This document shows, piece after piece, positions 2,878-17,873 of a DNA stretch of 64,000 nucleotides. The position numbers were made by a program, and so were the translations under genes. The notes below the pieces were generated by a model, which worked only from the letters and a program-made list of their open reading frames with translations, ran no database searches and was not told the origin of the DNA. The stretch lies in NCBI RefSeq assembly GCF_030013205.1, contig NZ_CP122648.1. One strand, written 5' to 3'. This stretch comes from Escherichia coli (GTDB lineage: Bacteria; Pseudomonadota; Gammaproteobacteria; Enterobacterales; Enterobacteriaceae). How positions within the stretch are numbered: position 1 is the stretch's first letter; every line of letters begins with the position of its first letter.

Positions 2878-5800
2878 TCATTTTCCTAATTCTCCAGCTA
2901 AAAGTTCAGCCTGCTTCAAAACAGTCTCTGTGGCGAGCAATGACATATCAGGCGGATAACCATATTTTTTGAGCAGACGTTTTACCACCACGCGAATTTT
3001 TGCTCTTGCTGCTTCTTTCACTGTCCAGTCAAGACTGACATTGTTGCGGATAGCCTCCGTAAGTACGACTGCCAGTTCTCGTAGTTTTTCCTTTTCCATT
3101 AACTCGCGAGCACTGTCGTTATCTGCAACAGCAGAATAGAAGGCATATTCATAAGCGCTGAGGTTTAACTGGCTGGCAAGGCTGTCAGATTCCTGGATAG
3201 TCTTGGCAAGCTTGATTAGCTCATCAATTACCTCCGCTGCGGTCAGTACCTTGTTCTGGTAGCCATTGATTGCAGAGGTCAGCATATCAATCAGTTTTTT
3301 GCCTTGGGTGATACTTTGATTCGAGCGAACCTTGATCTCGTCAGAAAGCAGTTTTTTAAGCGTTTCCAAAGCAATATTTCTGTGTTGGTAATCCTTCATT
3401 TCCTGAAGGAATTCTTCAGAAAGAACGGAAATATCAGGTTTTTGTATCCCAGCAGCGTCAAAAATATCAACAACTTTATCGGTAACCAGAGCCTGATCGA
3501 TAGTCTGTTTTACCCGAACTTCGAGACTGTCATTGTGTTCTTCTTCTGATCCGTCTGAGTTTTCAGTAAATTTATTCAGTCTGGCTTTTACTGCCTGGAA
3601 GAATGCTACTTCGGGTGCCGCTTCCATTGCTTTATCGTGCGGTGTCGCCAATGCAAATGCCTGCGATAAGGCTGCAACCGCAGCGAGGAAACGCATTTTA
3701 CCTTTACCGTTATCCAGCCCTAAAATATGGTTTTCTGATTCAAGAATAATTGTCAGGCGTTGTGAGGTAGTTGCGGCAAAGTAAGCTTTGTAATCGTATC
3801 CATGCATCATGCCTTCCAGGATTTCCAGCTTTTCCTGCATGAGCGTTACGGCTTCTTCCTGAACCTCAGCAGGATCTCCACGTCCACCTGCATCAGAGTA
3901 AAAGGAGAGGGCTTCTTTTAAATCAGAGGCAATGCCCAGATAGTCAACAACCAGACCGCCTATCTTATCTTTATACACACGGTTCACACGGGCAATTGCC
4001 TGCATAAGGTTGTGGCCTTTCATTGGTTTGTCGATATACAGCGTATGCATGCTGGGAGCGTCGAAGCCGGTTAACCACATATCACGCACTATCACCAGTT
4101 TCAGCTTGTCGTCGTCATCCTTCATACGGTTAGCCAGAACCTGACGTTCTTTTTTTGTGGTGTGGTGTTTGGCAATTTCTGGCCCGTCAGCAGCAGAAGA
4201 GGTCATGACGACTTTTATTATACCGTCATTTAAATCATCGCTGTGCCATTCAGGTTTTAAGGCTATGATTTCTTTATATAGTTCAGCAGCAATACGGCGG
4301 GACATGGTAACAATCATGCCCTTACCATGATCGGCATTGGATTTTAAGCGCTGCTCAAAGTGCAGAACCATATCCGCCGCAATCGCTTTAATACGTTTTG
4401 AACTGCCAATCAAACCTTCGATTCTGGCCCATTTAGAACGTTCTTTTTGCGTGAGCGTCAGTTCGTCCTCGTTAAACTCATCATCAAAGTCTTCAATAAG
4501 CTGACGACCTTCATCACTGATGGCAATTTTGGCAAGACGGCTTTCATAAAAGATACGAACTGTTGCACCATCTTCAACGGCCTGCGAGATATCGTAGATA
4601 TCAACATAGTTACCAAAAACAGCAGGCGTGTTGACGTCCGTTTTTTCTATGGGGGTTCCGGTAAAGCCGAGATAGGTCGCATTAGGTAAGGCATCACGCA
4701 TATATTTGGCAAAGCCGTAAACGGTGCGTTTACCTGTTACGTTGCCTTCGCTGTCTTTCACGTCAACTTCTTTGGCGCTGAAACCGTACTGGGAACGGTG
4801 TGCTTCATCAGCGATAACGACAATATTGGTTCTGTCTGACAACAACTCATAGATATTGCTGCCATCATCAGGCTGGAATTTTTGAATAGTAGTAAACACC
4901 ACACCGCCAGAGGCGACACGCAAATATTCTTTGAGTTCTTCCCGGTTGTTGGCCTGTTTTGGTGTCTGACGAAGTAGCTGGGTCGCGGAAGAGAACGTAC
5001 CGAATAGCTGATCATCTAAGTCGTTACGGTCAGTAATCACAACAACTGTCGGATTATCCAGCGCCAGCACAATTTTCCCGGTATAAAACACCATCGAAAG
5101 CGATTTACCGGAACCCTGAGTATGCCAGACTACGCCCGCTTTGCGATCTCCGGTTTTTTGCGCATTAACAAGATCTTTACTGTTACGTCCCTGCTGGCGC
5201 AGTGCCACTTCGGCAGAGGGGGAGTCCGCATTCACCGCTGAGGCACGAATAGTGGAAAGAACTGCTGCATTGACCGCGTAGTACTGGTGATAAGCCGCCA
5301 TTTTTTAACAGTACGGATACTGATAATCCCTTTGCTGTCTTCATGTTTGCTGGCCTCAAACACGATAAAGTGGCGGATTATATCCAGCAGCGTTACAGGA
5401 TTAAGCAACCCCTGTAATAAAACTTCAAGCTGTGGTTGGGTACTGGTGGCTTGCGTTTTACCGTTAGCAGTTTTCCACGTCATATAACGACTGAAATCGG
5501 CAGAAACCGTCCCCGCTTTGGCTTCCAGCCCGTCAGATATCACATTAAAAGCATTGTAGTTAAACAGACCGGGGATTTGGTTCTGATAGGTTTTAATCTG
5601 ATTATAGGCACCTGTTACCGTTGCATTTTCGTCAGCGGCATTTTTAAGTTCGATAACGACTAATGGCAGGCCATTGATGAATAAAATAAGATCAGGTCGG
5701 CGGGTATGGTTGCCTTCTTTGATGGTGAGCTGATTAATGACCAGAAATGCATTATTAGTGGGATCGTTAAAGTCGATCAGGCTGGCCAGTTCTCCTTGTG

Positions 5801-6116
5801 TATTACCATCCTTGCTGACTTCGATATTGATTCCTTCGGTCAAAAGGCGATGAAAGGTTAGATTGTTTGCCATTAGGTCAGGTGAGCTGATCTGCATCAC
5901 CTGTTTTAGAGCTTCTTCACACTTCTGCTCACTAAGGTGCGGGTTAATTCGTTGCAATGCTGTACGCACTTTATCTTCAAGGATAACCTGCTGATAGCTA
6001 CGTAACGGATTGATTCCACTGGGTTCAATGTCCGGGCCGTAAACATACTCATAGCCCAGCCCTTGCAGGTGCTCAATTGCCATTACTTCAATATCGGATT
6101 CGGTCATCTTTGCCAT
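2878..6116 (-). pseudogene. hsdR: Type I restriction enzyme R subunit (HsdR), split by a -1 frameshift in a homopolymer tract
   Basis: Two overlapping ORFs: 5232-6116 (N-terminal 294 aa) and 2878-5301 (807 aa with Walker A TQGSGKS and DEAD-like VIADEAHR). The junction is a 6-nt T run at 5301-5306 (A6 on the coding strand); adding one A would join the frames as ...[15 protein letters not shown]... Confidence 0.85.
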
Positions 6117-8912: not shown

Positions 8913-9075
8913 TAGCGTAACCTTATGAAGGGGGAAGATGGCCCTATTTTGCCTTAAAGTTCCGCTTGTTACGAGCTTATACAGCGATTAATTATTATCT
9001 GGTTTTAGTGTGTTCGTGTAGCTCAGCAAGTGCAATGACTCATGGAGTAAATGCTTTGTAGCGGGATTGTAGATG

Positions 9076-9393
9076 TCAGGTCATTGCCGTCAATGGAGCC
9101 AGTGTCATTGGCATAATTGCTGCACAGCCGATGCCACGCGCACATTCGCTAGTTCACTGTGGTTCATCGTGTGTACTACACCAGTACGCAGTCCGGGAAG
9201 TAACGGCATGGCAGAATCGTTTGTAAAGACGTTCAAGCGGGATTATGTGTACGTAGATGATCTGCTGGATGCAGTCTAAATGATGGAAACAATGGCAGAA
9301 TAGATAGAGGATTATAATAATCTGCATCCACACAAGGGGTTGAACATGAAATCGCCACGCGAATATCGTGATGCCATATTAGCAGTTAATTAG
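9076..9393 (+). pseudogene. IS2-like (IS3 family) transposase 3' remnant, truncated and interrupted by stop codons
   Basis: Translation ...VRSPGSNGMAESFVKTFKRDYV... then, after stops, ...IEDYNNLHPHKGLNMKSPREYRD... matches the C-terminus of IS2 InsD as I recall it ([20 protein letters not shown]...YNEWHPHSALGYRSPREY). Confidence 0.55.
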
Positions 9394-10508
9394 CCGTGTC
9401 CGTTTTAGCAGGGACAACTCCAGTATTCAAAAAAGCTTTCTTAGTGCATATGCATGAGGTGAATAGATGTACAGGCTATGACAAACCATAGTTGTAATTT
9501 TTAATGTTTAAAATTCTCCGTTACAGTAGGACATTCCTTGTACATTAAATTCCATCTAAGGTTGAATTTTTAATTTAATAAGGTCGCAATCTAAAATGAT
9601 GTGTATGGGGTTATTTGTAAGATGATTTTTTATTTTTGATAGTGGTGATTAAGGGAGCGGGTAATGTTTGTCTATTCAAAAATATAGAGATTCAAGGTTG
9701 GTAGCAGTTTGGCTTCTTTTATAACCGAAGGGCAGAAAAGCAAGGGGAACTCGAAGAAGCAAGCGCAGCGGCTTCGCAGAGTTAGCCCTTGCTTCTCTTA
9801 TAATTGGCATTATTCATTCAAGAACAATAGGATCTTCGCTTGTACAAGCGAAGCTATAATAAAAACAATCAATTAATAATTTTAAAAGTATTAAACAAGA
9901 ACCTATTGACATTCATAAAATACAAGTTATTTATAATGTATGCCATAAATAAAAAGTTTTATGTCATATGTATCCTGCACTATGTGCAGTTAATGTACCA
10001 CTTGTCCCATAGATGGGAATATTGGAAAGGTTACTTTGTTTTGAAGTAGCCTTTCGTCCTTCAATATTAACGATTACTTATTGCTATTACCAAGTCCAGT
10101 CGAATCGAAGAACATCTTTTATCTGAAACGACTCCTAATACCCGGTTAAAGCCACAATATCTCTCGCATACGTAGACCAAAGAAAAATTATGATATTAAC
10201 TATGTGATTTTTTTTAGTGTTAAGTTGAATAATTAAATACTGGAGAGTTTTCTGTGCACTACCAATTGCTGGTTCATCTGTTCTGCCGCTGATGTTTCTG
10301 ACGAATCTCCCGGTGACACAGAACTGTCCCTCTCTACCAGCCTTTATTCGACTCAATGTCCGGCTGCTGATACGCAGTTATCCCTTCGTATCAATGACTG
10401 ACACTTAAACGTAATGCTTTGGTTGCTGGCGTATCTGACAGCTTCTTCGGCGTGAAGGTCGTTGTGTAAGTATACTTCTTGGTTTATTTAGGCTATATAA
10501 AACCATGA

Positions 10509-11405
10509 CTATGACTTGCTGTTTTCAGTAAGAGTCTTATCATCCAAAGAATTTATTCTAGAAATTCTTTTTAACTCATTAAGATAATCAACCTCGTTTT
10601 CTAAGAACCAATGAAGAACTTTAGAATTGCCAAGTAATTTATTAATATATGACTGGATTATAACGAATTTCAACATATCTGAACCATACTCGGTTTGAAG
10701 CTTTTTCGTTTCTTCCGAAGTTGTTGCCATTTCTTGTTCCAGACGAAGTATGGTTTTTTTTATGTCCTTTTTATAGGGAGTGTTTTTCCCTTTATTTACT
10801 ATCATCGATGCCGGTGTTGCATCCAAGATGCTCATTGCAAATTTTTTACTATAATTATCAAAATTAATCATTGTACCGACTGCTTCAATTTGGCGAATTG
10901 GCTTCATTTTCCTCAAAACGTCAAATGTAGCCTTAGGTATAGGTTTATCAGAAAGTTTCGCAATTACACTTGGATCTATGCCGTTCATCACATTCGCTTT
11001 ATCTTTTATGGCATCAACAGATATGCCCAAAGCAGCACTAAGTTTTTCAATTGATACTTTTGCCAGAGACTTAATTATCATTCTATGTTCTTCAACTACA
11101 TTTATATGATTCACTTGTTTGTTAGGAGTGAAAGCATCATCTATGCTCGAAAGTATACATGGAGCTTTTTCTATACCTAAGTCTTTTAAAGCCTCAACCC
11201 TTAAATGGCCATCAAGTATCTTAGTGACATCTTTATCTTTGTCATAGAATACTATTATTGGTTCAATAATACCTAAGCTTTCGATAGAGGTAACTATTTG
11301 ATGATATTTATGGCTTCGCTTTACGTTTTCTAATAATTCCTTAGATGGAATTAACTTATTAGTTTCCAGGTAAATAAAATTATCGCCAAAACGTATCTGA
11401 ATCAT
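10509..11405 (-). CDS. ParB/Srx-family protein (second of two tandem paralogues)
   Basis: 298-aa ORF; N-terminal ParB-like motif ...KILDGHLRVEALKDLGIEKAPCIL...; K/N/I-rich; start overlaps the upstream gene stop. Confidence 0.6.
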   Translation of the reverse strand: MIQIRFGDNFIYLETNKLIPSKELLENVKRSHKYHQIVTSIESLGIIEPIIVFYDKDKDVTKILDGHLRVEALKDLGIEKAPCILSSIDDAFTPNKQVNHINVVEEHRMIIKSLAKVSIEKLSAALGISVDAIKDKANVMNGIDPSVIAKLSDKPIPKATFDVLRKMKPIRQIEAVGTMINFDNYSKKFAMSILDATPASMIVNKGKNTPYKKDIKKTILRLEQEMATTSEETKKLQTEYGSDMLKFVIIQSYINKLLGNSKVLHWFLENEVDYLNELKRISRINSLDDKTLTENSKS

Positions 11406-12298
11406 TTTAATACCTCTTTGTTTACTGGGGTTAATATCTGAGATGGTAGTTCTGAAAGATTCTCTTGTTCAAGTATATGTTGAAAGCTTTTATTTATCAT
11501 TATGATGTTAAAAATCTCATTTACTATTAGTAGGTTGGTTTTTATGAATTTTGAGTTGTTATAAACAGATTTATGTTCAGCGATACTATTTTCATAAAGC
11601 TCAATCAACTCCTCTGCAGTCATCCTTTTTGATGGTTTGTGATAATAAAATCCGGCTGCTTTTGCACCTTTATTCCCAACTGTTCTTTGATTTAGAATGT
11701 GTTTTATCTTTATAATGTCCCGACTTTTTATTAATTTTTTATCATATGCTTCGGTAAGAATATCTTGTGCTTCCTCAGTTTCACATCTTGCAAATTGCAC
11801 TGCGAGATACAGAGGCAAATTACCCCGTTCGACTGCTGAGAGAAGTTTATGCTCTCCCTTATCAAGTAGCATATTAATACTGCTCACCCAGTTCGATGAA
11901 TATCCAGTAATCTCACTTATTTCGGAGTCTGAAAGTCCTCTGATTTTCATGTCTTTAATCACCTGTAATAACTCATTAGAACGTGGTCTTCTCCTTGCAA
12001 TGTTTTCAACTAAACTCATAACGTAAGCATCTTCTTCTGATACATCTCTTATAATTGCTGGAATAATAGTTTCACCTAATGCAACGAGAGCCTCTATTCT
12101 CCCTTGACCACAAATTAAAGCATATTTGAAATCGCCTTCATCAATAGCTCTTACGCTTATTGGCTTGCTTAATCCTCTTTTTTTTATGCTTTCCTTTATT
12201 TCTTCATGCACTACCTTATTTCTTGTTCGTGGGTTAAGAAATTTTATTTTTGCAATCTCAATTTGAATTATTGGGAATTCATTTTTTTCAGGCAGCAT
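11402..12298 (-). CDS. ParB/Srx-family protein (first of two tandem paralogues)
   Basis: 298-aa ORF; ...KPISVRAIDEGDFKYALICGQGRIEALVALGETIIPAIIRDV...LVENIARR... resembles ParB box regions followed by an HTH-like segment; no ParA partner adjacent. Confidence 0.6.
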   Translation of the reverse strand: MLPEKNEFPIIQIEIAKIKFLNPRTRNKVVHEEIKESIKKRGLSKPISVRAIDEGDFKYALICGQGRIEALVALGETIIPAIIRDVSEEDAYVMSLVENIARRRPRSNELLQVIKDMKIRGLSDSEISEITGYSSNWVSSINMLLDKGEHKLLSAVERGNLPLYLAVQFARCETEEAQDILTEAYDKKLIKSRDIIKIKHILNQRTVGNKGAKAAGFYYHKPSKRMTAEELIELYENSIAEHKSVYNNSKFIKTNLLIVNEIFNIIMINKSFQHILEQENLSELPSQILTPVNKEVLK

Positions 12299-13844
12299 AT
12301 AGTTCCCTCACTTTCATGCGAGTAATAATTTGTAGAAGTTTATCAAGATTATCAAATCTATAGAGATCTAATCGAATGTTGTTTGTTTCCGTCATGCACA
12401 TTTTATTATATTCGTTTTCAATCTTTGGTATGATATAAAAATCAAGAGGTGAAATATTTTGTGAATTCATTCGTATAACAATTGTTATGTCTGCTTTCTG
12501 TGAGTTATCAAACCGGACTTTCCATCTAAGTTTACCTGATTTCATATGTATGCATTTAGTAACAAGGACGGAAATTAAAAACTCATCATTGATGTAAAGC
12601 ATTGGGGCATATTTATACTCGTCTATATGACAGTTACTTTTTAAAATTTCACCCTTAAAATCCTCAATTATCTCTGAGTAAAATGATCTTAGTGCTTCAT
12701 TTATTTTGAGATAGCTGTAATCATGTTCTGGCTTATAACCAATCAAAGTATATGCTCTTAAAAGACCACCAAATCGGGTTCTATAAACAGAAGATGAAGG
12801 GCCTGTATCATCTTCATCAATGATAAAGCCTGATAGTTTTCCATTAGATTCTAATTTTTGTTTTAGTTTTTCTAATAGATCTTCATTAGTCAAATGAATG
12901 GATCGGAGCTGAATTATTTCTTGAGCTTTATTGTATTTTTTCTTTGAAATAATAGGTTTATATGCCTTGTCACATCTAACCCATTCATGTTTGGGGTTTT
13001 TTACAAGCCTACTTTTTAATTTAGATGAGGTTTTGTTATATATGTTGTTTCCAATATATTTTTCATTTGTCAAAATTTGATGTATTTTTGCACGAGTCCA
13101 TAATGTTCCATTTTCTGCAGGTATGTTCTGTTCATTTAATCTCTCAGCAATAATGAATTCTGGGACGTTATTATCTATAAAGAGATCATATATTCTATTT
13201 ACAATTTTTATTTCATTTTTTGGTCCCGGAATTAATATTACCCTATCTGTTTGAATACTCTTTCTTTTGCGGAAACTCAATATTTCTTTAGCTATGCCAT
13301 TTTCGTCTACTAAAAGACGTCTCAGCCCATAACCAGCCATACCGCCTTGATGATAACCAAGCTTTATTAAATTTACTTGCCCTATAAATACCTTTTCAGA
13401 TAGATTCCTGCTGTGATATGCAGCACTAGATCTTTTTATATTCAGTATAACAGAGGACTCTAAAGGGAAATCTTTAGTGGGTATAGGTTCGGAACAATAT
13501 ATAAGATCTACACCATTTCTCTCAAATAGAAAGGAATAATATGCCGCTTCATCACTATTTTGAAAACGACCAAAACGGCTCACATCATAAAATAATACAG
13601 CCTGTATATCTATTTTCTTTTGTTCTACATCGCTAAGTAACTGCTGCAAAGAATGCCTGCCTACGATACTGACTCCGCTCTTACCTGCATCATCGTAGGT
13701 ATAAGCGATTTCCATATTGTTCTTTTCAGCATAATCTTTGATATATTCGGACTGATTATGTAAAGAATATTGCTGATGGTCGGTAGACATCCTCAAGTAC
13801 TGCGCGACCCTAACTCTATGATTTTTGTCATTTTCGCTAGCCAT
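12288..13844 (-). CDS. Large serine recombinase (resolvase/invertase catalytic domain plus C-terminal recombinase domain)
   Basis: 518-aa ORF; N-terminus VAQYLRMSTDHQQYSLHNQ... carries the catalytic-serine motif typical of serine recombinases; overlaps the downstream ParB-like gene by 11 nt. Confidence 0.7.
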   Translation of the reverse strand: MASENDKNHRVRVAQYLRMSTDHQQYSLHNQSEYIKDYAEKNNMEIAYTYDDAGKSGVSIVGRHSLQQLLSDVEQKKIDIQAVLFYDVSRFGRFQNSDEAAYYSFLFERNGVDLIYCSEPIPTKDFPLESSVILNIKRSSAAYHSRNLSEKVFIGQVNLIKLGYHQGGMAGYGLRRLLVDENGIAKEILSFRKRKSIQTDRVILIPGPKNEIKIVNRIYDLFIDNNVPEFIIAERLNEQNIPAENGTLWTRAKIHQILTNEKYIGNNIYNKTSSKLKSRLVKNPKHEWVRCDKAYKPIISKKKYNKAQEIIQLRSIHLTNEDLLEKLKQKLESNGKLSGFIIDEDDTGPSSSVYRTRFGGLLRAYTLIGYKPEHDYSYLKINEALRSFYSEIIEDFKGEILKSNCHIDEYKYAPMLYINDEFLISVLVTKCIHMKSGKLRWKVRFDNSQKADITIVIRMNSQNISPLDFYIIPKIENEYNKMCMTETNNIRLDLYRFDNLDKLLQIITRMKVRELYAA

Positions 13845-14014
13845 GCACGAAACCTCATGGATGATTCAATACAATGTAGTGGATAAAATTGATCAAATTT
13901 CAACCGAATTCAACTGTTTTATCATTGATTAGAGCGAATTTGGTAGATCTTCGAGGTGTATGATAATCGAGAAGAGATGTGAATTATTTAGCTGATATGA
14001 CCGACAGCTTTCGT

Positions 14015-14064
14015 TATGTGGACTCAATGTCCCCATTTGTAAATGGCTATGCTTAGTCCACATA
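14015..14064. repeat. Inverted repeat TATGTGGACT ... AGTCCACATA (10-bp arms, about 30-bp spacer) upstream of the serine recombinase gene
   Basis: Seen directly in the sequence (approximate coordinates); lies in the 282-bp gap between the serine recombinase and the integrase. Confidence 0.5.
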
Positions 14065-14126
14065 GGTTAATGGTGTGATTATTAATTCTTTAACTAAATC
14101 AAGATAGTTAATCCATCATGGGAGAG

Positions 14127-15356
14127 TTATGCGGCCATAACTTTGCATTTTTGAGACGAAACATAGTCACTCCACCATTGCATGAGAACCACCCGTTCAG
14201 TGAGATACTCTGCACGATTGTAGGCTGCAATTATTTCATCTTTCTTCGAGTGGGCAAGGGCGGCTTCTAAGACATCAGTCCTAAACTTGCCAGACTCCTC
14301 AGCAGCCGTTCTAGCAATGGATCGCATACCGTGAGCTACAAGCTCACCTCCGAAACCCATACGGATTATGGCCGCATTAGCTGTTTGTTCATGCATGTGA
14401 TTGAGTGGAGCTTTGATACTGGGGAACACCCACTCTCTATGCCCGCTGATGACTTTCATTAAATCCAAAACTCGCAAAGCTTCTTTGCTCAGTGGAACTT
14501 TGTGAGGCTTCTTCATTTTCATAAACTCCGCCGGGATGTTCCACATGCCAGTTTCAATATCAATATCTGACCATCTTGTGCGAACAGCTTCACCTGGGCG
14601 AACCCATGTGAGAAGTTGCCACTCAATCAGTAGCCTTGTTTCCAAACGGATAGAAGCATTGTTTAGAGCAACCAAGAAGCGAGGGAGTTCGGAAGGGGGT
14701 AATGCTGGCATATTCTGTTTTTTTGGCTTGCTGAACCGTTGCCCCAGGTTGTCTGCCGGGTTGAATTCTATGAGTTCTTCTGTTGCTGCATAGCGGAAAA
14801 TTTCATTCAGGCGGGATATGATGCGGCGAAGTGTTTCAAGGACACCTCGTTTTTCTATGGGTTCTAAATGCTGTTTAAGCATTTTAGGGCGAATCTCCTT
14901 AATTGGGGTATCACCCAATGTGGAAAAGATATTTCTCTCTAGGCTTCGCCAGATGTCGTTAGCATGATCTTGGGAGATGCCTGACGTTTTGACTTTCTCA
15001 TCAAGCCACTTCTTGGCTACTGCTTGAAATGTATGTTCCGTGGCATCTTTCAGTGCATTGGCTTTTTGGTTGTTATGAACTTGGGGGTCTATACCATTTG
15101 TAAGCAACGACAAGTATTCATCACGTAAAGCTCGTGCCTTCGCAAGTGTAAGGTGAGGATAGGTTCCTAAGCTCACCTTAGTTCGCTTTTTGGTCACAGG
15201 CACTGCATATCTGAAATACCAATTTTTCTTCCCTCCCTTCGCCAGGGGAGCGATTCGCAACAGCAAACCATCGCCGTCAAAAAGGTTAACCTCTTTTTCG
15301 GCAGGTTTGGTGCTTTTGATTTCAGTGTCAGTGAGCTTCTTAGCGATTTTGGCCAT
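14127..15356 (-). CDS. intA: P4-type tyrosine integrase (IntA-like) at the 3' end of ssrA
   Basis: ORF 14127-15437 (GTG start in the track); probable start at 15356 (MAKIAKKLTDTEIK...), matching the N-terminus of CP4-57 IntA as recalled; conserved ...HGMRSIARTAA... region. Confidence 0.85.
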   Translation of the reverse strand: MAKIAKKLTDTEIKSTKPAEKEVNLFDGDGLLLRIAPLAKGGKKNWYFRYAVPVTKKRTKVSLGTYPHLTLAKARALRDEYLSLLTNGIDPQVHNNQKANALKDATEHTFQAVAKKWLDEKVKTSGISQDHANDIWRSLERNIFSTLGDTPIKEIRPKMLKQHLEPIEKRGVLETLRRIISRLNEIFRYAATEELIEFNPADNLGQRFSKPKKQNMPALPPSELPRFLVALNNASIRLETRLLIEWQLLTWVRPGEAVRTRWSDIDIETGMWNIPAEFMKMKKPHKVPLSKEALRVLDLMKVISGHREWVFPSIKAPLNHMHEQTANAAIIRMGFGGELVAHGMRSIARTAAEESGKFRTDVLEAALAHSKKDEIIAAYNRAEYLTERVVLMQWWSDYVSSQKCKVMAA

Positions 15357-15522
15357 GTTTGGGACCCTCGATTTTAGGACCCATCTTCGTGGGTCCCATT
15401 CAGGGTGCCATAACTCGTAGTTCTCAGCAATTCTCACTAGACTACAATAGACGTAAAAAAGCCCGCAGAGCTTGTGCTGTGCGGGCTTAGTAGACTTTAC
15501 TGAACTTCAGTACATCAATATT

Positions 15523-15885
15523 TGGTGGAGCTGGCGGGAGTTGAACCCGCGTCCGAAATTCCTACGTCCTCGGTACTACATGCTTAGTCAGTCTTTACAT
15601 TCGCTTGCCAGCTGCGGACGGACACGCCACTAACAAACTAGCCTGATTAAGTTTTAACGCTTCAACCCCAGGCAGGGCTTCCACGCGATCTCTTTTGGGT
15701 TTGACCTCTCTTGATCCCCGTCCTAAGAGCGGAGGCTAGGGAGAGAGGGCTCTAAGCAGGTTATTAAGCTGCTAAAGCGTAGTTTTCGTCGTTTGCGACT
15801 ATTTTTTGCGGCTTTTTACGAGGCCAACCGCCCCTCGGCATGCACCTTGGGTTTCGCAAATCCCGTCGAATCCAGAATCAGCCCC
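15523..15885 (-). ncRNA. ssrA: tmRNA (SsrA), 363 nt
   Basis: Reverse complement begins GGGGCTGATTCTGGATTCGACGGG and ends ...GGGTTCAACTCCCGCCAGCTCCACCA; the tag-template region is present. Confidence 0.95.
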
Positions 15886-17531: not shown

Positions 17532-17873
17532 TTAGTTACCACTCAGCGCAGGTTTGTTATCAATGTTGGTCAACACACCGCTACTGTTAAAGGTCAGCGT
17601 CAGCGTTTGCTGCGTTACACCTTCATGACCTGGTTGCTGGCGGAAGACATAGAACCAGGTATTCGTACCAAATGGATCGGACATCAACGGTGTACCCAAT
17701 GCGTACGCAACTTGTTGTTGCGTCATGCCAACGCGTATTTTGGATACGTCGTTAGCGGTCAGATAATTCCCCTGGTTGATGTCAGGACGGTAAACCACTC
17801 GCTCCAGAGTGGAACAGCCTGCGGTCAACATCAATAGTACTGCTGCTGCAGCAGTCAGCGTTTTACAGCGCAT
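17532..17873 (-). CDS. bamE: Outer membrane protein assembly factor BamE (SmpA)
   Basis: 113-aa lipoprotein [41 protein letters not shown]... Confidence 0.95.

Follow-up and report, generated by a model that had tools for sequence, protein, structure and literature searches.

A conserved, mobile unit of one serine recombinase gene and two ParB-family genes in Escherichia coli and other Proteobacteria: a possible site-specific recombination module

Results

Three overlapping genes between a type I restriction-modification operon and the ssrA island integrase

The window, a stretch of 64,000 nucleotides of E. coli DNA (contig NZ_CP122648.1), carries three minus-strand genes in the order LSR, ParB-A, ParB-B. 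The LSR gene (12288..13844) encodes a large serine recombinase of 518 aa, in which a resolvase catalytic domain and a recombinase domain are followed by a C-terminal domain specific to the family. ParB-A (11402..12298) and ParB-B (10509..11405) each encode 298 aa, the former with a ParB_N domain and an HTH/RepB-like region, the latter with a diverged ParB_N and a strong RepB domain. A sequence-only reading of this DNA had described three coupled reading frames with overlaps of 11 nt and then 4 nt, and the coordinates are exactly as it claimed; the motifs that it quoted, YLRMSTDHQ, ICGQGRIEAL and ILDGHLRVEAL, are all found in the translations. The trio is also, as stated there, more AT-rich than its hsd and int neighbors (GC 0.31-0.36 versus 0.44-0.47, with core genes at about 0.5), and we regard it as a genuine, horizontally acquired, translationally coupled three-gene unit. 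Current annotation calls its members merely 'recombinase family protein' and 'ParB/RepB partition protein'.

The context of the trio was read from an identical annotated E. coli region, which places the type I hsdR/S/M genes to its left and a P4-type tyrosine integrase and ssrA to its right and thus bears out the proposed location. The integrase of the ssrA island (14127..15437, minus strand; 1,230 nt in the RefSeq annotation) is co-inherited with the trio. In an Rfam scan around the locus, tmRNA alone scored above threshold.

The recombinase has a family-specific C-terminal domain in place of the zinc ribbon

Pfam searches matched the LSR to PF00239 (Resolvase, E=1.4e-21) and, at residues 210-312, to PF07508 (Recombinase, E=1.2e-21). 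Alignment of homologues showed that the protein is conserved over all 518 aa and that S20, R18, D87, R90 and R93 are unchanged across 40 of them; a phiC31-like YDVSRF motif is present as well. The N-terminal 318 aa align over about 318 columns with the SPbeta, Bxb1 and phiC31 integrases in Foldseek and also match phrog_95 'integrase', and the structural matches to serine integrases end near residue 318. From about residue 316 to residue 518, where serine integrases have a zinc ribbon and coiled coil, the LSR has a domain found only in its own family, with no PF13408 match in Pfam and no conserved Cys cluster in the homologue alignment. The earlier call of a large serine recombinase therefore stands as far as the Resolvase and Recombinase domains are concerned, whereas the zinc ribbon typical of such enzymes is missing, and the atypical C-terminus had been overlooked.

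This C-terminal part consists of a helical HNH-repeat-like unit and a restriction-endonuclease-like beta domain and, when modeled alone, resembles PD-(D/E)xK-fold proteins. Such a predicted fold would suit a role of the trio as an undescribed defense system against phages or, more likely, against plasmids and other mobile DNA, a reading that we consider possible but doubtful. The ParB proteins would load onto or recognize foreign DNA and recruit the LSR, and its serine site and/or nuclease-like C-terminus would cut or scramble the target. The strict operon organization with translational coupling also speaks for this reading, but the canonical D...(D/E)xK triad is absent from the C-terminal domain.

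Two distantly related ParB/RepB proteins without a ParA partner

ParB-A matched ParB_N (5e-13) and RepB (1e-7) in Pfam, scored above the cutoff of TIGR00180 parB_part, and its sequence matches in the PDB were Spo0J, ParB, Noc and KorB. Its motifs NPRxR, CGQGRxE and VENxAR, invariant in 38 homologues, resemble the boxes of the ParB CTP pocket. ParB-B matched RepB (PF07506, 3e-24) and ParB_N (3e-5), has the invariant motifs SxKYxQI and LDGHLRxE (26 homologues aligned) and has homologues in at least 1,384 protein clusters at E<=1e-10. Because the GERR box reads CGQGR in ParB-A and DGHLR in ParB-B, CTP hydrolysis by either protein is uncertain. The two proteins belong to phrog_3951 and phrog_31451, respectively, both of unassigned function. 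The sequence-only reading had described them as tandem paralogues; they do share a ParB_N+RepB architecture, but their kinship is merely distant (30% identity over 63 aa, E=1e-3).

Membership of both small proteins in the ParB/RepB partition family is one reason to consider that the trio stabilizes its carrier without a dedicated ParA, which we judge unlikely. The LSR would resolve multimers or tandem arrays, and the ParB proteins would tether or segregate an excised or plasmid form, or act by KorB-like silencing. Against it, ParA, ParM and TubZ were missing from every neighborhood census: no such partner was found in the island or among the recurrent neighbors of about 85 loci, in agreement with the earlier statement that a ParA or ParM partner is lacking. 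A ParABS or repABC partition locus proper was rejected on the same grounds and because all E. coli copies are chromosomal, and the 'partition protein' calls by annotation pipelines are probably misleading for these genes. ParB/Srx folds are also known in defense proteins, such as DndB and GmrSD-type enzymes, and this background counts for the defense reading.

The leader contains a candidate operator

The leader or promoter region of the operon (13845..14126, minus strand) extends from the stop codon of the integrase gene to the start of LSR, and in the E14 lineage (94% identical) it is conserved together with the trio. It contains the palindrome AAAATTGATCAAATTT (13885..13900), with a GATC center, 41-56 bp upstream of the LSR start codon, which occurs only once in the window. 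LSR genes with only 46-50% identity (loci L003, L011, L012 and L019) are preceded at the same position by a related palindrome, which lies within otherwise unalignable regions. Judging from its position and recurrence, AAAATTGATCAAATTT is a candidate operator or parS-like binding site. A lone promoter palindrome is compatible with KorB-like repression and to that extent with carrier stabilization, whereas the absence of a repeated parS-like array argues against the latter. TTTC..GAAA palindromes on both sides of the module were considered as well, but were seen only at L058; elsewhere there is one upstream copy, probably an operator.

The leader also holds the inverted repeat at 14015-14064 that had been suggested as a recombination site. 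The repeat exists (arms of 24 nt, 75% complementary), but its complementarity is not retained in the 94%-identical E14 lineage. An IS1 deletion with a boundary at 14050 takes out the trio in strain MLI105. At the other end, the 3' tail of the unit (10458..10508, minus strand) is the last stretch that two E. coli/Enterobacter lineages have in common; beyond it their flanks differ, and blastn breakpoints at 10458-10461 in L003 and L008 mark the left end of the shared unit.

Searches for att sites, target duplications and empty sites of the trio identified none. The sole flanking direct repeat, the 12-nt GACTCAATGTCC (10350/14021), was rejected as an att candidate, being at chance level and not retained in E14. 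The ssrA 3' end is not duplicated in the window, no long repeat besides IS1 is present there, and repeats at the tRNA flanks of L058, L061, L072 and L139 gave no convincing candidates. L003, L008 and L097 have a 244-bp int fragment on the left side of the trio. Since these three loci share one ancestral junction, the fragment records a single event and not a pattern, and an LSR element targeting the integrase 3' end was rejected; the window has no int fragment on that side.

In E. coli the trio is inherited with one integrase allele

The trio is present in 659 of the 5,426 complete E. coli genomes (12%), BL21 among them, at 661 places that are all chromosomal; 14 genomes gave 60-80% matches. 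It occupies just two sites, each adjoining a tyrosine integrase, and integrase alleles of at least 90% identity are found in about 650 genomes. In this species the trio acts as backbone that is inherited together with a single integrase allele, and it is the distal cargo that varies. In BL21 the entire ssrA island consists of int, the trio and IS1. Apart from IS-mediated truncations, the trio showed no insertion or excision polymorphism in a set of about 650 E. coli genomes.

These observations bear on both alternatives. E. coli B/BL21 is the classical T-phage host, fully permissive for T1-T7 and lambda-type laboratory phages, and carriage of the trio by such a strain, together with its constancy beside the integrase where true cargo varies, counts against defense. 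The chromosomal location of most copies, including 661 of 661 in E. coli, counts against stabilization.

The unit is conserved and moves across Proteobacteria

Querying with ParB-B alone recovered 80 genome loci and 61 loci from viral collections, nearly all with a colinear trio. Across these approximately 140 loci of Alpha-, Beta- and Gammaproteobacteria the gene order is kept down to about 30% identity while the flanking genes vary, and in nearly all of them the genes lie on one strand and overlap. A query from the LSR side gave the same LSR-ParB pairing. The association is far beyond chance and is not an accidental neighborhood.

Movement of the trio as a unit is supported by Erwinia L009 and contig L010, which share only the 3.56-kb trio unit, at 96.6% identity, in unrelated contexts; the L009 unit gave no match in E. 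coli. The Rhodobacterales loci have a sharp common right boundary about 213 bp past ParB-B. In four cases the trio is present twice in a genome or MAG, as one would sooner expect of a mobile element, and this counts against defense. One minimal island (L058) comprises a small HTH gene and the trio in about 4.9 kb between an RND pump gene and tRNA-Arg, with the LSR as its sole recombinase. A divergent small HTH gene lies upstream of the trio at 23 loci, an arrangement that resembles integrase/regulator modules. The trio was also found on 103 plasmids, mostly rhizobial megaplasmids. This favors stabilization, but these megaplasmids possess repABC systems of their own, and Tn7-like transposons, which also carry the trio, lack a free replicative form.

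The trio always lies at the mobility-gene edge of elements, with examples directly after a P4-type int or the Tn7-like TniQ. Housekeeping genes adjoin it on the LSR side, and IMG/VR provirus borders run through it. The genes beyond it, downstream, are typical defense genes, and the trio is enriched beside known defense genes; the neighborhood does resemble a defense island, as had been noted. Its cargo position after TniQ or int and in the ssrA hotspot speaks for the defense reading.

Database searches gave the trio no name. In PADLOC-DB 2.0 the LSR and ParB-A had no match, and ParB-B matched nothing but the ParB-like N-terminal part of a model for a type II methyltransferase; NCBIfam and Pfam returned generic families only. 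Full-text literature searching found no description of the trio, it is absent from the text and supplements of DefensePredictor, and a paper reappraising Dnd proved unrelated. The earlier view that this is not a named system is upheld by PADLOC, NCBIfam and the literature. A catalogued defense system is unsupported, and the absence from PADLOC and DefensePredictor weighs against the defense reading as a whole.

A structured RNA follows the operon in alphaproteobacterial relatives

In at least 60 loci of alphaproteobacterial relatives, a structured RNA of about 197 nt lies directly 3' of ParB-B on the operon strand, a feature that the sequence-only reading had overlooked. Many soil and marine bacteria are among those with an RNA-bearing trio. 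The model has 56 pairs, of which 38 show compensatory changes, and 96.4% of cells are paired. Counted on an alignment fitted to the model, double-change cells number 226, versus 45.5 in shuffles and 28-44 in slid controls. The frequency of G-U pairs indicates that the RNA is the sense strand. Its 3' end coincides with the module boundary, and no Rfam family corresponds to it; it represents an undescribed, strongly covarying RNA family in its own right. No match was found in the window, the 10458..10508 tail included, even with filters off, and the RNA was undetected in enterobacterial, pAtC58, Piscinibacter, Pseudomonas and other loci.

The RNA could be a guide, scaffold or regulator for recombination by the LSR and ParB proteins, diverged or lost in E. 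coli, an idea to which we give the lowest probability of all. Its conservation, covariation and boundary position are in its favor, as is the loss of the normal DNA-recognition domains from the LSR. It is weakened by the negative searches in the window and the other lineages and by the covariation counts having been made on a model-fitted alignment. The last helix may serve simply to terminate the operon transcript, and the element as a whole could have a regulatory or stabilizing function in the 3' UTR. A crude longest-common-substring comparison of the variable RNA loops with the module flanks, in which element ends were undefined, gave no excess of complementarity over control windows.

Discussion

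The explanation that we tentatively prefer, at somewhat less than even confidence, is that the trio is a self-contained site-specific recombination module for the mobility or maintenance of its element. The LSR would break and rejoin DNA by means of its intact serine active site. Lacking the zinc ribbon and coiled coil by which ordinary serine integrases recognize and pair att sites, it would probably rely instead on its own C-terminal domain and on both ParB/RepB proteins, with the three proteins cooperating physically. ParB-A and ParB-B would probably pair as a heteromer that binds or clamps DNA in a sequence-specific manner, marking the substrate and repressing the operon from the palindrome that precedes the LSR gene. 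The module would serve its carrier in one of three ways: it would integrate and excise a minimal island, capture or exchange the cargo next to it, or resolve and retain an excised circle.

We favor mobility or maintenance because of the backbone behavior in E. coli, the location at the mobility-gene edge, the existence of trio-only islands (L058) and the carriage by BL21. The sequence-only reading had offered an antiphage or element-maintenance role; these four results lean toward the mobility or maintenance side, an antiphage role is not established, and the trio is probably not a stand-alone phage-killing effector. A recombination module is further favored by the conserved gene order, the invariant catalytic residues, the 3.56-kb unit shared between unrelated contexts, the common Rhodobacterales boundary, the two-copy genomes, the upstream HTH gene and the leader palindromes. 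On the other hand, the negative searches for att and empty sites and the lack of insertion or excision polymorphism in E. coli, where just two sites are occupied, speak against it. The adjoining tyrosine integrase already explains integration in E. coli, and neither Tn7-like nor P4-int host elements need a further recombinase. The LSR lacks the domains that give serine integrases site recognition and directionality, and the defense genes downstream fit defense cargo equally well, which also counts against a recombination module.

More speculatively, and with little confidence, the trio may represent a new class of recombination machine, in which a zinc-ribbon-less LSR is targeted or controlled by a heteromeric ParB clamp and, in most Alphaproteobacteria, by the approximately 197-nt RNA. 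Such a class would be distinct from serine integrases, partition systems and IS110 bridge-RNA systems and could act in mobility or in defense. The trio is common: 12% of complete E. coli genomes carry it, the laboratory workhorse BL21 among them, and in Proteobacteria its protein clusters number in the thousands. If it is a recombination device, it would perform serine recombination without zinc ribbon or coiled coil, through ParB partners and perhaps RNA, which bears on cargo exchange in genomic islands and on the design of new integrases. If it is a defense system, the combination of a recombinase with ParB clamps would be mechanistically of a new kind.

Comparison with known systems

The LSR resembles the serine integrases (phiC31 Int, Bxb1 Int, SPbeta SprA and SCCmec CcrB) in having a resolvase-type catalytic domain followed by a recombinase domain, in the invariant Ser/Arg/Asp set of the catalytic domain and in its place at the edge of mobile elements. 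It differs in the absence of a zinc ribbon and coiled coil, in the two ParB/RepB genes that always follow it and in having no known att sites. Both ParB proteins share with the ParB/Spo0J/Noc/KorB clamps and the RepB of repABC a ParB_N domain followed by an HTH/RepB region, and ParB-A retains the box-like NPRxR, GxGR and ENxxR of the former family. Unlike those systems, the trio has no ParA/RepA, RepC or parS array, and its two divergent paralogues stand in obligate tandem, linked to a recombinase.

IS110/IS1111 recombinases work with bridge or seek RNAs, and the alphaproteobacterial relatives of the trio likewise have a structured ncRNA of about 200 nt beside a recombinase gene at an element boundary. 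The trio recombinase, however, is of the resolvase type and not of the DEDD/Tnp fold, the RNA lies 3' of the operon, loop-flank complementarity was not found, and the window version has no detectable neighboring RNA.

Serine recombinase genes beside defense genes in islands are also known from PinQ/PinR inversion and from RADS marker recombinases, which are small Gin/Pin-type invertases that act as markers or invert prophage segments (PMC12529663, PMC12632615). No ParB partners are reported for these loci ('ParB' occurs 0 times in PMC12632615).

A precedent for the reading of the trio as a recombination module is the integration module of the Dehalococcoides ssrA islands, which comprises the LSR DsiB, DsiA and RecF-like, ParBc, Mom and primase-like proteins (McMurdie et al. 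2011, PMC3146451). Both are conserved blocks that combine an LSR with at least one ParB-domain protein, and the Dehalococcoides block lies at the island edge (attL), with freely exchanged cargo, like the trio. Its six genes include a single short ParBc and a further, small serine recombinase, whereas the trio has an LSR and two ParB/RepB proteins. The presumed integrase there is DsiB, which overlaps the ssrA repeat, whereas in E. coli the LSR is separated from ssrA by a tyrosine integrase. The two modules come from different phyla and are not homologous as wholes.

Genomic position and composition of the module

The module consists of three minus-strand genes, encoding a large serine recombinase (LSR; 12288-13844, 518 aa) and two ParB-like proteins, ParB-A (11402-12298, 298 aa) and ParB-B (10509-11405, 298 aa), which overlap by 11 nt and 4 nt. 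These minus-strand ORFs match exactly those listed in a sequence-only reading of the window, all the motifs it quoted were found in the proteins, and the AT-richness it described corresponds to a GC content of 0.31-0.36 in the trio, with the hsd and int genes on either side at 0.44-0.47. Pfam assigned Resolvase and Recombinase domains to the first protein, with no match to a zinc ribbon, and ParB_N and RepB (PF07506) to each of the two smaller ones; NCBIfam returned generic families only (a weak CcrB and parB_part). The description of ParB-A and ParB-B as paralogues stands as regards their shared architecture, but their similarity is very distant (30% identity over 63 aa, E=1e-3).

The type I restriction-modification genes on one side and the ssrA integrase on the other, proposed in the same reading, were confirmed from an identical annotated E. 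coli region. Outward from ssrA (15523-15885), the trio is preceded by a P4-type tyrosine integrase and followed by an IS3 remnant, after which come the type I genes hsdM/S/R and copies of IS1. The remnant, a pseudogene of an IS3-family 'integrase core domain' (9073-9340), lies between hsdM and the trio, and the AT-rich segment 9400-10457 contained no convincing ORF or RNA match. The hsdR gene appears as two overlapping minus-strand ORFs (2878-5301, 807 aa; 5232-6116, 294 aa), and the RefSeq annotation of K_EC180 gives a single intact hsdR of 3,240 nt; judged from sequence, the restriction subunit of the window may be frameshifted. Two IS1 copies in direct orientation (273-840 and 2112-2646, segments 90-96% identical) lie at the distal island end; in BL21 and MLI105, the trio is likewise bounded or deleted by IS1. 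A sub-threshold Rfam match to the IsrM sRNA (15455-15532, minus strand; 46 bits, with the gathering score at 376) falls between ssrA and the start of the integrase gene and probably reflects mere att-region similarity among ssrA islands.

Distribution in E. coli

The 3.8-kb region was found in 659 of 5,426 complete E. coli genomes, always on the chromosome and nearly always in a single copy. The integrase allele of the window (at least 90% identity, ~650 genomes) is essentially co-extensive with the trio in this species. The distal cargo is variable: type I restriction-modification in the window, NACHT and RelA/SpoT in locus L088, Hxs/TIGR04141 in E14 (a 94%-identical lineage) and none in E. 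coli B/BL21, where the entire ssrA island comprises int, the trio and IS1. In E14 the module resides in an argW island, again adjoined by an integrase 3' end. In one trio lineage, a 244-bp fragment homologous to the terminal part of the P4-type integrase gene (77-81% identity to window positions 14126-14369, at its 3' end) lies ~50-100 bp past ParB-B. This lineage comprises three comparison loci (L003:11711-11954, L008:3027-3235 and L097:11013-11256), and the junction common to them indicates that the arrangement arose in one ancestral event.

The ssrA locus of E. coli 1EC213 carries a different integrase allele (80% identity) followed, in place of the trio, by a hypothetical gene, an ATP-binding protein and a 'response regulator receiver domain' protein; this gene content identifies the int-adjacent position as a variable hotspot. 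Fourteen other E. coli genomes had only 60-80% identical trio matches and may represent further lineages or contexts.

Conservation of the three genes as a unit

Using ParB-B homologues alone as the query, we recovered 80 loci from one-genome-per-species contigs and 61 from IMG/VR. Wherever the contig allowed, LSR, ParB-A and ParB-B followed in the same order and strand, abutting or overlapping, down to ~30% ParB-B identity, and the reverse look-up from a distant LSR led to the same ParB pair downstream. The trio occurs in Alpha-, Beta- and Gammaproteobacteria and in one Acidobacteria MAG, with examples on pAtC58 of Agrobacterium fabrum C58 and on a Piscinibacter plasmid, where the TniQ gene of a Tn7-like element precedes it. 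Two copies were present in each of four genomes or MAGs. The suggestion that the trio moves as a unit was borne out by Erwinia locus L009 and contig L010, which have nothing in common except the 3.56-kb trio unit (96.6% identity). In the minimal island of locus L058 (~4.9 kb), an RND pump gene and tRNA-Arg enclose only an HTH gene and the trio, and the borders of IMG/VR 'proviruses' run through the trio in many cases. The three genes clearly form a functional, self-contained module.

The surrounding genes are not conserved across loci. Pfam matches on the ParB-B side include WYL, HsdM/N6_Mtase, SNF2, DEAD/ResIII, GmrSD_N, HipA and Fic; those on the LSR side are a mixture including housekeeping genes, AbiEii, TniQ and HTH proteins. 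The sole recurrent neighbour family comprises small, divergently oriented HTH-like genes immediately ahead of LSR (e.g. L005:4083-4490, minus strand; ~125-150 aa); they occur in 23 loci, most of them alphaproteobacterial, and E. coli lacks them. The family carries a conserved WTGANERTVKNWFSG motif, belongs to phrog_23106 (unknown function) and probably encodes an HTH regulator. The NTPase partner that a partition system would need was absent from every neighbourhood surveyed, as the sequence-only reading had noted for ParA and ParM in the window, and we therefore rejected this function.

Recombinase and ParB-like proteins

The catalytic residues Y16, R18, S20, T21, Q24, D87, R90 and R93 were invariant among 40 LSR homologues, which are conserved over the full length. 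The AlphaFold model (pLDDT 81) matched the solved SPbeta, Bxb1 and phiC31 integrases over approximately the first 318 residues only, and the remaining 200 contain no Cys cluster. A separate model of this C-terminal domain (pLDDT 85) shows a beta domain preceded by a helical unit, which weakly matches the 'homing endonuclease associated repeat' and recurs in other proteins as arrays of 4-7 tandem copies; the domain as a whole is confined to this recombinase family in AFDB50. An exhaustive profile search with the domain yielded 1,819 representatives (E<=1e-10), a count that takes in repeat-containing proteins as well.

The nuclease-like fold predicted for this domain, together with the neighbourhood, would fit a role in defence against phages or plasmids. 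We consider this rather unlikely, as the trio behaves like backbone in E. coli and is present in BL21, a phage-permissive strain. A PADLOC search matched the trio to no catalogued defence system, and that assignment was rejected.

ParB-A retains the ParB-like boxes NPRxR, CGQGRxE and VENxAR, and its sequence matches the structures of Spo0J, ParB, Noc and KorB. In ParB-B, SxKYxQI and LDGHLRxE are invariant and the RepB region is strong. A stabilisation or silencing role of the trio appears improbable.

Elements upstream of the recombinase gene

The palindrome AAATTGATCAATTT (13885-13900) has a single occurrence in the window, 41-56 bp ahead of the LSR start codon, and recurs at the same position upstream of LSRs just 46-50% identical, in leaders that are otherwise unalignable. 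The divergent HTH/LSR promoter region of alphaproteobacterial loci contains TTTCY-N-GGAAA palindromes. These leader palindromes are candidate operators or ParB-binding sites. The inverted repeat at 14015-14064, put forward earlier as a recombination site, loses its complementarity in E14, and repeat and flank comparisons in the window and related loci defined no att or empty sites.

A structured RNA-like element downstream of ParB-B in relatives

In pairwise comparisons of Rhodobacterales loci, similarity stopped at a common boundary ~213 bp past ParB-B, regardless of what follows, and this stretch, which contained compensatory changes, exceeded the terminal part of ParB-B in conservation. A covariance model located a ~197-nt RNA-like element in at least 60 loci (L022:10891-11087, plus strand; L029:10904-11100; L068:10905-11100; at least 57 others), including Bradyrhizobium, sphingomonads, Acidomonas and viral-collection contigs; it adjoins ParB-B on its 3' side and shares the strand of the operon. 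In an alignment of 56 sequences fitted to the model, the element has eight helices with 56 pairs (96.4% paired), and 38 of these pairs show double-sided changes. The double-change cells in this model-fitted alignment numbered 226; slid controls gave 28-44 and shuffles 45.5, with none of 500 shuffles as high as 226. Frequent G-U pairs indicate the sense strand. The element matched no Rfam family and was undetected in the window, even with filters off, and in enterobacterial loci, pAtC58, Piscinibacter, Pseudomonas and some other loci. In a crude test, its variable loops showed no complementarity to the sequences flanking the module. Locus L028 has a second, weaker copy (17651-17827, plus strand; 68 bits), just before the contig end, in the same orientation as the first (10890-11056) and 6.8 kb downstream of it; the two may bracket a cargo segment. 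An RNA-assisted mechanism of the trio has, in our estimation, only about the chance of a long shot.

Proposed function and comparison with known systems

The best-supported reading, which we adopt tentatively, is that the trio serves mobile elements as a recombination module. Its LSR, catalytically intact but lacking a zinc ribbon, would act together with the ParB/RepB pair, joined in many lineages by the RNA, and the carrier element could thereby integrate and excise, exchange cargo, or be resolved and retained. We found no description of the combination, the LSR C-terminal domain or the associated RNA in the papers searched, PADLOC, NCBIfam or Rfam. The closest published analogue is the 'integration module' of the Dehalococcoides ssrA island, which combines an LSR and a ParB-domain protein with variable cargo but shows no homology to the trio as a whole (PMC3146451). 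The parts of the trio belong to known families, and we rate it as akin to the serine-recombinase modules of mobile elements, with a slim but genuine chance of a new mechanism.
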